Assembly: GCF_035594765.1 (NCBI RefSeq)
Contig: NC_085841.1
Span: 172,159,574-172,223,573 of the forward strand
Source: Anolis carolinensis
Taxonomy: Eukaryota
DNA: 64,000 nucleotides
Reading direction: 5' to 3'
A program made the position numbers and the translations under genes. Position 1 is the stretch's first letter; every line of letters begins with the position of its first letter. Under the pieces are notes generated by a model, which saw nothing but the letters and a program-made list of their open reading frames with translations, had not been told where the DNA came from and searched no databases. Shown one piece after another: positions 19,793 to 25,975 of the stretch.

Positions 19793-19898
19793 ATGCCTAC
19801 CCACAACAAGCTGAAGATTTTCTTTATGCTACTGACAGTGGTTATCTACACAATAATGATAGTGATGAATGCAGGAGCTGGTTCAGGAGCATTCAGAG
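19793..19898 (+). CDS. Coding exon 1 (MPTHNKLK...GSGAFR)
   Basis: ATG at 19793; acceptor ttttccag ends at 19784; donor gtgaag at 19899. Confidence 0.85.
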
Positions 19899-22800
19899 GT
19901 GAAGTCCAGATATGCACAACAAATATTAATACCTGCTTTTGCACTGAAATCGTAGTGGTTGTAAAAGATGTTCTGTGGACATCAGAACAGGCTAGCATTC
20001 AAAAGAAGTCTGGGGGTGCCCATCTATACTGACCATATAATGCAGTTTAAAGGTAGCCTCAAACTGCTACAGCTGTACTATGCATGAAGTATGCTGCAGC
20101 ATGCTTTAAGGCATTTAAACTTGAACTAATTTGGGGGAAAGTCTGAAATAAGCCACTGGATGCGCTGCAGTGACATGCTGATGTGTATTATGAACTTCAG
20201 ACGAAGGCAGGGCTGATGAAAATCACAAATGAGCATGTCTGGGTAGCAGATGATCAACCCCTTGGCATTGGTAATTCGGCACCCCCCACTGCTGTCATTT
20301 TCTGCTTCTTTTTTCCACATTGTGGGTTTATAGAGTGCATGTATGCATTTCTTTTGGAAATGGGGGGAACACATTTTCAATTACTGTTAAGCTGCAACTA
20401 TTGGAACTGGTCTAAGGCCACCTGGAGTCTTGTAATATGCCACAGTTCTGGAGTCAATGCATAAATGTCTATATTATTAACTGCTGCAGGTGTGTTTCAT
20501 ACCACGGTTGGAAATATCTCACGCCACCACGACACAGACTTCACACCAGCATCCTGGGCCTTCTTCATTTGGAACCTCATCTTTCTATGGCAATATGCCT
20601 GGCTGGTCTATGCCTTGTCAGGTCTCTGCAGAAGGTACTCGCTGGTCATAACCTGTAGAATTAGTACATATTGCAGGATTGTTGGAACATAATCCAATGC
20701 TCTGTGCAGTTCTCAGAATTGGTTTTTTTTTTTTTTTTTTGTATTGTCAGGAATGAACTTGGCTGGGTCTACATGTTGCCAGATGTGCTGCCACTCCCAT
20801 TTTACTGGATATGGATGCTGAACAATGCTTTAAACATTGGATGGCTATTTCTGTGGGATTCCTTGTAAGTAAACACCCACAGTTGAAATTTACATAACTA
20901 CAGATTGTCCAGCCTCCTCCCAGAAAGGCTGCTGGTTAATTCTAGTTTAATGTTGTTGCTTTTTACACAAGCACCCCTTCTTAGGGGTAGATTTCCCTCA
21001 CTTCCTGTTGTCTCACCCCTGTTCCTAACTATGAGTTGTTTGTAAGTTGGATATTTGTAACTCGGGGACTGCCTGTATGTGGTTACGTATGAGTTTGTAC
21101 TTAACGTTGACCCATGGATAAGTCAACCCAAGTGTTTTGTTCTAATGTTTTTAGTAGTGTTTCTAGATTTGAACACAAGTATATTTAGTAATACAAAGAC
21201 TAACAAAGACACAGCTAAAAATGCTGTGTCATATTTACTTTCTTTGCAGACTCTTCAGTCCAGCGCTACTTGTCCTGGGACTTCTCACTCTCACGAACTA
21301 TGCAGCTCTCTTCATTTCACACCGGGCTTTGTTTCCTCACACAGCCTGGTTCCAAAAACACAGCAAAGCAGACCTCTGGCTTATCCGGATTCTGGTACAG
21401 TCATTTGAGATTCCTTACAGAGACTTGAATAGAGGGAAATGATATTCAGATGTTGTATGGCAAAGATTTAGGACTTCATCCCACAGAACAGGTCAGGTGT
21501 TTGGGAGAGTAGGTTTTCCATAAAGCTCCAGCATACTCTGTTTTGAAATTAAATGAAAGATTTTCCTACCTCTATTACACGTAATTCTTCTCTCTGCTTT
21601 CTTTAAGATTTATCCGTTTGATTTGACATCACAGTAAATACTTGTTTCCCCCACTGTCCCTCCCCCATTTTCTTTTCTTTTTAAAACTTCTCTCTTTCTT
21701 GGAAGTTCAACGTACAGTCTAAAAAACAAAAACATATATAGAGGGGATTATTCTTGTGTTCTTACAAGAGGGAGGGGGGAAATGAAGCTTTAGCTCTCTT
21801 AAATCTCTCTCTGCTGTCCTTTTGATGGGCATGCAAAAGCAGCACAGCAGGAGTTTCAGGCAAGAGTTCAAAAGAACTTTTATGACCTGACACAGGGAAA
21901 GGGAGCTGAAAGCTTGCTAAGGTTACAGAGACATGAAGTGCAGGATTTGCATGGGGCCCTTCCACACACCTGTATAAAATCCACATTGAACTGGATTATA
22001 TGGCAGTGCGGACTTAGAAAAACAAATTCAAAGCAGATGTGGTGGATTATCTGCTTTGATATTCTGGGTTATATGGCTGTGTGGAAGTGCCCATGCTTGT
22101 TATTTTCTCCTGAATGTTTTGAATATCTTGTTTGCTATACCTCCTCAGTCCCAAAAAACGGTAATCACGGCAGAAAGGAATTCTGCCCATCTCGGCTCCT
22201 CCCTTCACAATAACATCATTGTTTTATTTACAAGCAGGCAAGGGAGGATTCCCATCATATGTCAAATTGGGCGTTTTTACAAGTCTCTACATGGGAAATT
22301 GAGGAATAAGTCACTTGCCAATTGACTCAGGAATCGTGAGAAAAACCCACACTTTAGAAGCCCCAAAATACCTCTGCCCTACATTTGAAGCTTGTGTCGT
22401 GTGAAGGGCAACATGAGTGGCAGTTTCTTATGTGTGTAGAAACACTTATTTAATTTTGTGTGATGGTCATTAATAGTGAAGAAAGCTTTTAGTCAGTATC
22501 CAATCAGGCATGGCGAGGGTATTTTTTTTCACTATTTATGGTATTTTATTTGATTGCAAGATTTATACTTTAGGCTATATCTGAACAATTTAAAACCGTA
22601 AGAATAATTTAAAGGATAAAACATATTTAACAACTGGAACAATTTAAAAACAGTTTAAACAATTTAAAACCACTTGAGCAAATGTACATAAAATCAGTCC
22701 GAAACCTTTAGGAGCAATGTTTTGGCTTTATGTCAGAATGACATCAGTGATGGTGCCAATCGGGCCTCGAAAGGTATTCCATAACTGAAGTGCCACAGAA

Positions 22801-25800: not shown

Positions 25801-25975
25801 TTTTTCTTTCTCCCTCTCTTGCTGAGTAAACAAAGGCCATTTTCTTTTTCTCCCCTCTGTAGTTGTGCTGCTGGTAGTGACCTGTGTCATATTTAGCATT
25901 CGAGTGGGCCTAGTCACTTGGAGACACAGAAAGGAGAATTTGGACAAACTACTTCCTCAAACTGCAACACTGTGA
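19793..25975 (+). CDS. Uncharacterised 303-aa, ~8-TM, Trp-rich membrane protein; 7 coding exons join(19793..19898,20490..20634,20751..20864,21250..21394,23413..23561,25175..25314,25863..25975)
   Basis: All six introns are GT-AG with matching phases (1,2,2,0,2,1); the exons total 912 nt = 303 aa + TGA with no internal stop. Motifs FTPASWAFFIW, LNIGWLFLWD and NGIALYATWTTIATLLN recall the si:ch211-161h7.5-like / TspO-related 8-TM family (from memory, not searched). Confidence 0.92.
20490..20634 (+). CDS. Coding exon 2 (GVFHTTVGNIS...LSGLCR)
   Basis: Acceptor ctgcag; donor gtactc. Confidence 0.92.
20751..20864 (+). CDS. Coding exon 3 (RNELGWVY...WLFLWDS)
   Basis: Poly-T tract then gtcag acceptor; donor gtaagt. 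Confidence 0.93.
20950..21077. mobile_element. Tc1/mariner (Tigger-like) terminal fragment in intron 3
   Basis: Ends gtaactcggggactgcctg-ta; homologous to 48825-48905. Confidence 0.7.
21250..21394 (+). CDS. Coding exon 4 (LLFSPALL...LWLIRIL)
   Basis: Acceptor tctttgcag; donor gtacag. Confidence 0.92.
21953..22092. mobile_element. Harbinger-like MITE in intron 4
   Basis: TIRs gggcccttccacac / gtgtggaagtgccc. Confidence 0.8.
22540..23345. mobile_element. Two degraded L2 3' fragments in opposite orientation (22540-22890 minus, 22955-23345 plus)
   Basis: ggtgccaatcgggcctc...gccacagaagagaagacc on one strand; ctccactgg...tataaagtgttggttttgatctttaaagccctacatggtttgggtcca (LHW...KVLVLIFKALHGLGP) on the other. 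Confidence 0.65.
23413..23561 (+). CDS. Coding exon 5 (VQNGIALYATW...EVAV)
   Basis: Acceptor ttttatgtggtag; donor gtaagt. Not reported in this frame by the ORF track. Confidence 0.92.
23832..24120. mobile_element. hAT (Charlie-like) non-autonomous fragment
   Basis: Starts with cagtggttctcaacctgtgggccgc; the opposite end is not evident. Confidence 0.6.
24693..24842. mobile_element. Harbinger-like MITE
   Basis: TIRs gggcccttccacacagc / gctgtgtggaaggggcc. Confidence 0.85.
25175..25314 (+). CDS. Coding exon 6 (WFYLENFLFDKYVRY...NIIT)
   Basis: Acceptor ttttgtgccaccag; donor gtgagt. Confidence 0.92.
25863..25975 (+). CDS. Coding exon 7 (VVLLVVTCVIFSIRVGLVTWRHRKE...TATL*)
   Basis: Long polypyrimidine tract then gtag acceptor; TGA at 25973-25975. 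Confidence 0.9.

Follow-up and report, generated by a model that had tools for sequence, protein, structure and literature searches.

The 64,000-nucleotide stretch of the Anolis carolinensis genome analysed here (NC_085841.1, positions 172,159,574 to 172,223,573, forward strand; hereafter the window, whose numbering is used throughout) contains a gene of seven coding exons for a tryptophan-rich membrane protein. Helices 1-5 of this protein are almost certainly a homologue of TSPO, and the whole is a long, eight-helix member of the TSPO superfamily that falls outside strict PF03073 membership by its size, the family cut-off and its lid motif. From conserved residues and a structural model we propose, with evenly balanced confidence, that it is a light- or oxidant-induced TSPO variant of the secretory pathway that binds, and probably degrades, porphyrins.

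Gene structure

The coding exons lie on the plus strand and splice to a 912-nucleotide frame encoding 303 residues; all six introns are GT-AG. The product is letter for letter that of A. carolinensis LOC103279469 (XP_008112923.1, 303 amino acids), first reached by a search with exon 2. An earlier reading of this DNA from its letters alone (the sequence-only reading) had described an intact seven-exon gene, with the same exon positions and translation. The coding exons, with the evidence for each, are:

19785-19898 (coding 19793-19898), plus strand: coding exon 1, acceptor AG 19783-19784, ATG at 19793; helix 1, residues 1-35 (contig piece 19784-19896; joined to exon 2 in three of four runs)
20490-20634, plus strand: coding exon 2; lid loop with short helix and NIS sequon, TP..W.F.IW motif, helix 2, F60, W63 (translation, model, contigs, profile alignment)
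20751-20864, plus strand: coding exon 3; helix 3, N108, N112, W115 (translation, model, contigs, profile alignment)
21250-21394, plus strand: coding exon 4; helix 4 and the basic loop 4-5 (translation, model, contigs)
23413-23561, plus strand: coding exon 5; helix 5 with N173, Y178, W181, A185 and N189, end of the TSPO fold, NET sequon, helix 6 (translation, model, fold match, contigs, profile alignment)
25175-25314, plus strand: coding exon 6; loop 6-7 with E224 and R233, helix 7 of the added three-helix part (translation, model, contigs)
25863-25975, plus strand: coding part of the last exon; helix 8, tail and TGA (translation, model, contigs)

Contigs of four runs were aligned to window positions 16600-29500. 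In three of the four (three studies) introns 1, 3, 4, 5 and 6 are joined at GT..AG, which supplies the junction support that the sequence-only reading had suggested looking for; the contigs of the fourth run contain none of the gene's joints in this interval. Intron 2 is not among the listed joints and is bridged inside one 1363-nucleotide contig, where the pieces 20488-20635 and 20753-20864 adjoin. The same contig carries 29 extra letters upstream of 19784; the gene must therefore have at least one further 5' exon and more than seven exons in total. That the source runs are RNA is our guess; the joints themselves are those of spliced RNA.

Helices 1-5 resemble TSPO in fold and sequence

An AlphaFold2 model built from 51 vertebrate sequences (pLDDT 88.6, pTM 0.87) has eight long helices, in keeping with the roughly eight transmembrane segments counted earlier, and a short helix (residues 42-48) in the lid loop between helices 1 and 2. 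When the model was compared with 48,161 chains, B. cereus TSPO (BcTSPO) ranked first, with a Z score of 13.3 and a root-mean-square deviation (rmsd) of 3.9 over 148 of 151 residues (model residues 7-196), and R. sphaeroides TSPO (RsTSPO) second (Z 12.5); the next row, an unrelated protein, scored 10.5. Against heme-bound RsTSPO the lizard model gave Z 13.6 and rmsd 3.4, and 146-148 residues aligned across the comparisons. Helices 6-8 lie outside the match.

The sequences agree with this placement. TspO_MBR (PF03073) matches seven of 90 diverse animal relatives at E ≤ 0.1 (best E 3.6e-6); three relatives scored singly reach 19.5-22.7 bits over residues 48-200, the curated cut-off being 24 bits, which some bacterial long-form relatives exceed. 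The animal profile matches three canonical TSPOs with E 1.7e-5. The TSPO/MBR link that the sequence-only reading had drawn is thus borne out.

Canonical TSPOs (PF03073; BcTSPO, 4RYI; RsTSPO, 8E7W/8E7X; vertebrate TSPO1 and TSPO2) share with the lizard protein the five-helix fold, over residues 7-198, and a lid loop, containing a short helix, between helices 1 and 2. They differ from it in size (∼ 160 residues, ∼ 18 kDa and five helices, versus 303 residues and eight long helices) and in the lid, which reads W-Y-x-x-L-x-K-P-x-W in TSPO and GNIS..Y.T..TP in the lizard family. Vertebrate TSPO1 carries a CRAC-type cholesterol motif after helix 5, whereas the lizard protein has F190 (F or L in relatives) and no Lys/Arg after Y196.

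Sequence searches of the PDB with the protein and three profiles returned no match, Pfam scans of the single exons and the whole protein assigned no family, and no NCBIfam family was matched. Weak Pfam matches to herpes glycoprotein M, DUF6332, DUF4534 and DUF2946 were set aside as hydrophobic noise, and the record names 'TAGAP isoform B', 'unc-119 B' and 'Taste receptor type 2' attached to some orthologues are unsupported by any scan. Fungal DUF1774 (PF08611) is a language-model neighbour of the lizard family (0.87 and 0.77, both below 0.9); it is a lead only, and it was matched in none of the Pfam scans run.

Conserved residues of the TSPO porphyrin pocket

Residues were mapped by sequence, through canonical TSPO aligned both to RsTSPO and to the animal profile, with no residue-level superposition. 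In the profile and HMMER alignments F60 corresponds to RsF46, W63 to RsW50, N112 to RsN84, W115 to RsW87, W181 to RsW135 and A185 to RsA139; we take RsW50 and RsW135 to be BcW51 and BcW138. Among the 90 animal relatives these residues are kept in 82 (F60), 89 (W63), 59 (N112), 88 (W115), 89 (W181) and 79 (A185), and the equivalent bacterial columns are invariant in 57 sequences. The motifs picked out by the sequence-only reading (TPA.W.F.IW, N..W...W and Y..W...A...N) are the most conserved columns of the alignment. In Xenopus orthologues one extra residue between the F60 and W63 columns (near residue 61) brings back the spacing of canonical TSPO.

The heme of RsTSPO lies between F46, W50 and W87; W135, W50, T88 and residue 139 bind waters, and a heme carboxylate is held by R43 (PMC10077581). 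In BcTSPO protoporphyrin degradation is impeded by the W51F mutation and mostly lost with W138F (PMC10598825); both indoles lie near the alpha methine of bound hematin, and an Ala-to-Thr change in TSPO leaves binding intact and stops catalysis (PMC12002307). Because the TSPO porphyrin-pocket residues are kept and a zebrafish co-orthologue seems to be light-induced (see below), the data point to a tetrapyrrole ligand more than to a generic lipid.

Topology and polar residues

Tryptophan accounts for 14 of the 303 residues. N-glycosylation sequons occur at NIS44 and NET202, the two noted by the sequence-only reading, and a third, NFT189, lies inside helix 5. The loop 1-2 sequon (44-46) is present in 47 of the 51 vertebrate sequences and the loop 5-6 sequon in 27. 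Since S46, the serine of the first sequon, is invariant in bacterial relatives too, conservation of that site may be structural. Basic residues cluster at both termini and in loop 4-5. On the strength of these sequons and basic residues, both ends of the protein are predicted to be cytosolic and the lid to face the lumen or the outside of a secretory-pathway or plasma membrane; animal TSPO1, in contrast, is a protein of the mitochondrial outer membrane. The protein has buried polar residues (N26, N108, N112, Q172, N173, N189 and E224), and helices 6-8 have conserved polar residues of their own (E224, R233, Y239). No internal repeat between helices 1-5 and helices 6-8 was detectable (E 0.11 and 0.29).

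A prokaryotic family with the same architecture

A tblastn search of plasmids returned 19 records, and every match named for a function was a 'tryptophan-rich sensory protein'. The three prokaryotic long forms that we examined are 261-314 residues long; they seed at least 7,339 clusters at 90% identity, a share of which carries PF03073. The animal profile matches the long bacterial form with probability 99.8 and E 8.8e-29 over 257 columns; taken part by part, the N-terminal parts match with E 5.1e-29 and the C-terminal parts (helices 6-8) with E 4.4e-7 over 42 columns. A Thermus long-form model likewise has these eight helices, and its two top matches are the same TSPOs (Z 15.0 and 13.7; next 10.3). 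Canonical TSPO is therefore a much more distant relative of the animal family than this long form is, and the kinship with bacterial tryptophan-rich proteins that the sequence-only reading suggested is borne out. On this view helices 6-8 would be an extra bundle that came with the pocket from an ancestor of prokaryote type.

The long form (e.g. Thermus thermophilus TT_RS10490, WP_011174490.1) has the whole architecture of the animal family, including helices 6-8, and the motifs N..L...G.IS..Y...F.PAG..F.IW, N..W...W and Y..W...A...N. It is shorter (median ∼ 260 residues), with shorter loops 2-3 and 6-7, and reads PFS.Y.GW where the animal family has NG...Y.TW. We found no dedicated Pfam or NCBIfam model for it and no functional paper, and scanning prokaryotic genomes for the DNA pattern of the vertebrate alignment gave no match. 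Two prokaryotic copies lie in frames of 500-522 residues (L140:5911-7476 and L141:6025-7524), about twice the usual length; possibly they are fusions or tandem forms.

Possible links to light

On a Thermus plasmid the long-form gene overlaps rudS and stands beside crtI, phr, crtB, carH, ldrP and uvsE (the CarH/LdrP carotenoid-photolyase cluster); rudS genes frequently belong to light-responsive operons (PMC11417400). Neighbours within ∼ 6 kb were counted at 80 mostly Chloroflexota loci, 24 of which have a CarH-type regulator, a photolyase, a phytoene-desaturase-like gene or a heliorhodopsin. The counts are DegV 18, DUF1295 17, CarH-type regulator 16, photolyase 10, DUF4345 10, DUF1475 9, AhpC/TSA 8, alpha/beta hydrolases 8, phytoene-desaturase-like 7 and heliorhodopsin 5. 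For photolyase about 0.06 neighbours were expected (17 copies in 61 genomes of the class, ∼ 227 Mb; 0.81 Mb examined). Heliorhodopsin lies nearby at L031:3837-4625 and four more loci, and the long form shares a DegV/DUF1295 context that a preprint ties to heliorhodopsins.

In zebrafish larvae a gene listed as 'si:ch211-161h7' rose 7.4-, 39.2- and 15.6-fold after 1, 3 and 6 h of light versus dark (p values 0.078, 0.025 and 0.020), and cry5 rose 3.8-, 17.7- and 17.8-fold in the same series (PMC11750094); all such gene names in this list of 1365 light-regulated genes lose their suffix. In the top-gene table of PMC11589825, which contrasts melatonin with none after constant light, si:ch211-161h7.5 has the largest rise (log2 +4.03), and cry5, soul5, cry-dash, ddb2 and per2 rise too. 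One zebrafish co-orthologue thus appears to be strongly light-induced, together with photolyase and heme genes; its duplicate, si:dkey-29d8.3, did not turn up in the light-related expression tables examined. Canonical zebrafish tspo is light-induced in three of the zebrafish data sets examined.

Phylogenetic range

A protein search gave 272 matches at E ≤ 0.001, and the best 120, down to ∼ 43% identity, comprise lizards, turtles, crocodilians, birds, amphibians, lungfish, coelacanth, sharks, rays, ray-finned fish and five marsupials (58-62% identity). The sequence-only reading had placed the gene in non-mammalian vertebrates, which the marsupials contradict. No placental is named among these best 120 matches; eight of them are without a species label and are nearest to frog, marsupial or fish sequences. 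Monotremes, snakes and lacertids are likewise not named among the best 120, so further losses are possible; several cryptochrome/photolyase genes, too, have disappeared from snakes (PMC9498864). On the animal side a full HMMER scan yielded 1,022 clusters at 50% identity. For 24 of its proteins the identity was looked up; those with a name include lamprey, amphioxus, acorn worm, ribbon worm, chiton, mussel and jellyfish, and none is placental. Orthologues therefore span jellyfish to birds and marsupials.

A FastTree tree of 57 sequences groups squamates, archosaurs with turtles, marsupials, amphibians and cartilaginous fish each together; its deep nodes are weak. Teleost si:dkey-29d8.3 and si:ch211-161h7.5, duplicated in teleosts, uncharacterised, and 45-50% identical to the lizard protein, fall together inside teleosts and are therefore both co-orthologues of the lizard gene; the sequence-only reading had named the latter as a fish relative. 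Sturgeons (Acipenser) have a second, more distant vertebrate paralogue (38% identity). The record of the Columba livia orthologue bears the name 'T-cell activation Rho GTPase-activating protein isoform B'; a TAGAP gene next door may be the reason, and this could point to the place where a placental remnant might sit.

Most marsupials retain CPDII photolyase, and eutherians lack it (PMC9498864). The apparent pattern of the lizard gene, present in marsupials and missing from placentals, matches it.

Proposed function and alternatives

We propose that helices 1-5 form a TSPO pocket closed by the lid loop, in a secretory-pathway or plasma membrane with the lid towards the lumen or outside and both ends in the cytosol. 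The gene would be switched on by light or reactive oxygen, and free protoporphyrin IX or heme would be bound between F60, W63, W115 and W181. W63 and W181 may help light- or reactive oxygen-driven oxidative cleavage of protoporphyrin, as in TSPO, and the photosensitiser would be removed from membranes outside the reach of mitochondrial TSPO. Placental mammals probably lost the gene, as they lost CPD photolyase. A broader version is more tentative, and we would lean against it at present: a second ancient, eight-helix animal branch of TSPO would act as a light-switched protoporphyrin photo-oxidase of the cell surface or secretory pathway, within one photoprotective programme (photolyases, heme-handling genes) that runs from bacterial islands under CarH control up to the D-box regulon of fish; placentals would have lost the branch together with CPD photolyase.

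Several observations weigh against the proposed porphyrin function or the lines of evidence behind it. The lizard protein itself has no match to Pfam TspO_MBR at E ≤ 1, Foldseek with its model returned nothing at E ≤ 0.001, and helical bundles, through their arrangement alone, score close to the Z of ∼ 13 seen here. Z values alone are thus insufficient for a helical bundle, yet we hold to the TSPO homology because the sequence agrees (the TspO_MBR matches and the profile E value). In the pocket, RsR43 and RsT88 have no kept equivalents (S57/G and L116 at those columns), the TSPO lid motif including its lysine is not kept, and the F60-W63 spacing is one residue shorter than RsF46-W50. The bacterial light link is lineage-bound, because the Chloroflexota genomes are kin, so that the 80 loci are not independent, and a second phylum sample shows no such island: the long form occurs in 30 of its 151 genomes, and 20 regions from 19 of these 30 contain no photolyase, crtI or heliorhodopsin neighbour, one region having a CarH-like blast match. 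In zebrafish the identity of 'si:ch211-161h7' is likely rather than certain, because its suffix is missing and another gene of the clone could be meant; the melatonin contrast of PMC11589825 is not light versus dark; si:dkey-29d8 is not among the 1365 light-regulated genes of PMC11750094; and neither teleost gene name was found in the searchable supplements of PMC12561580 (selected genes), PMC13110244 or PMC3039656 (8 of 11 files, microarray). Loss in placentals is likely, and its basis is the hit list (the best 120 of 272) rather than genomes. Sarcophilus has the TSPO-like gene and no CPDII (PMC9498864), and nocturnal geckos retain the gene.

Some of these points are shared by an alternative that we consider unlikely, in which the same TSPO-derived pocket holds a lipid (a sterol, a carotenoid or retinoid product, or an oxidised fatty acid) and the protein is a carrier or sensor in light-induced lipid remodelling. 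DegV (18 of 80) and the steroid-reductase-like DUF1295 (17 of 80) are the commonest bacterial neighbours, alpha/beta hydrolases (8) and phytoene-desaturase-like genes (7) also lie near bacterial copies, human TSPO needs cholesterol (PMC12002307), and neither the carboxylate-holding RsR43 nor the lid lysine is kept. Yet the residues that are kept are those that stack on heme and drive protoporphyrin cleavage, and no CRAC-type Tyr...Lys/Arg motif follows helix 5 (F190). Attention to helices 6-8, whose own polar residues E224, R233 and Y239 are conserved and which are homologous between animals and bacteria (E 4.4e-7), leads to a distinctly unlikely reading: a non-catalytic stress adaptor, switched by heme or another ligand, whose helices 6-8 bind a membrane partner to sort, gate or degrade it. 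Plant TSPO, which depletes an aquaporin (PMC7033594), would be its model. No membrane partner recurs prominently across the two bacterial samples, however, and both catalytic-position tryptophans are kept, as is the alanine whose change to Thr stops catalysis.

The three extra helices might instead provide a membrane path in a small transporter or flippase exporting tetrapyrroles or their breakdown products, an idea we judge improbable. Eight helices with buried polar residues (N26, N108, N112, Q172, N173, N189, E224) would suit it, as would the frequency of the gene (30 of 151 genomes) in a phylum sample without light-gene context; but no transporter is among the top fold matches, and the two parts of the protein show no internal repeat (E 0.11 and 0.29). 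Lastly, the low identity (14-16%), the rmsd of 3.4-4.2 and the absence of any Foldseek or PDB sequence match could mean that the TSPO likeness is convergent and the protein an unrelated helical membrane protein. We give this very little credence, since TSPO takes the first two places with each of two independent models, Pfam TspO_MBR picks up relatives across the same helices and scores some bacterial ones past its cut-off, and the motif columns align without forcing.

Other features of the window

Two regions flank the coding exons:

17130-17770, plus strand: candidate promoter or 5' untranslated exon region, not established; D-box-like sites at 17130 and 17149 (one mismatch each), CCAAT near 17189, donor-like sites near 17361 and 17764
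25976-28500, plus strand: probable 3' untranslated region, end not fixed; ATTAAA at 26001, 27124 and 27773, AATAAA at 28481; one contig runs from the last exon to 26388, others cover 26366-26773 and 26993-28088

An unspliced contig begins at 17766. D-box-like sites with one mismatch occur 31 times in the 64 kb, in two close pairs of which 17130/17149 is one, and the pair is therefore not evidence of regulation. The probable 3' untranslated region contains an 87-nucleotide inverted repeat (27970-28152). RNA-like contigs show A>G differences at 27994, 27995, 28026 and 28027, in its first arm, and at 28215-28216; this is the pattern expected of A-to-I editing, though the differences may also be allelic.

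No neighbouring host gene was found in the window: 66 exon-like frames were listed, 20 of these plus 10 long open reading frames were scanned, and only retroelement domains appeared. The retroelement-like features are:

6756-7247, plus strand: retroelement-like frame without Pfam match
14827-16134, minus strand: retroelement-like frame with RVT_1 at 14830-16134 (Pfam)
39645-44365, minus strand: long LINE-type element with a 452-residue open frame followed, in separate frames, by endonuclease and reverse transcriptase domains
51545-52027, minus strand: retroelement-like frame without Pfam match
56985-57669, plus strand: retroelement-like frame without Pfam match
60741-61512, plus strand: retroelement-like frame with zf-RVT at 60741-61427 (Pfam)

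A CpG-rich stretch at 52201-54800, in which no coding exon was identified, is possibly the promoter of a neighbouring gene.

Relation to earlier work and significance

Reviews give the vertebrate TSPOs as TSPO1 and TSPO2 only, and a passage of a 2026 review covers TSPO2 and the cyanobacterial and plant isoforms (PMC13759462). Literature searches on TSPO evolution, TSPO-like proteins and heliorhodopsin neighbours gave no title on an eight-helix TSPO or the animal family, most subscription journals lying outside their scope; the gene names and five LOC ids yielded one paper, with a passing table entry. The excerpts of PMC7662524 and PMC5394683 hold nothing on this family, and PMC8354205 concerns a Bacteroides TspO. 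NCBI already gives some prokaryotic long forms the TSPO name, while the entries examined for the animal branch are labelled 'uncharacterized'; its TSPO link may already be recorded in InterPro, AlphaFold clusters or subscription journals. The sequence-only reading had offered no known function; the kept porphyrin-pocket residues and the apparent light induction in zebrafish now sharpen that statement.

The real job of TSPO is disputed. Here a third, structurally distinct branch keeps the porphyrin-pocket residues without the cholesterol motif, and probably outside the mitochondrion, and so offers a natural experiment in which the porphyrin and cholesterol ideas come apart. The proposal names a testable function for 1,022 animal-side clusters (50% identity) and at least 7,339 prokaryote-side clusters (90% identity), lets zebrafish light biologists put an identity to an unnamed gene that is strongly induced, and extends by one candidate the set of genes that placentals lost in their nocturnal bottleneck. 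If true, a photo-oxidase branch lost in placentals would bear on their vulnerability to porphyrin photosensitivity.

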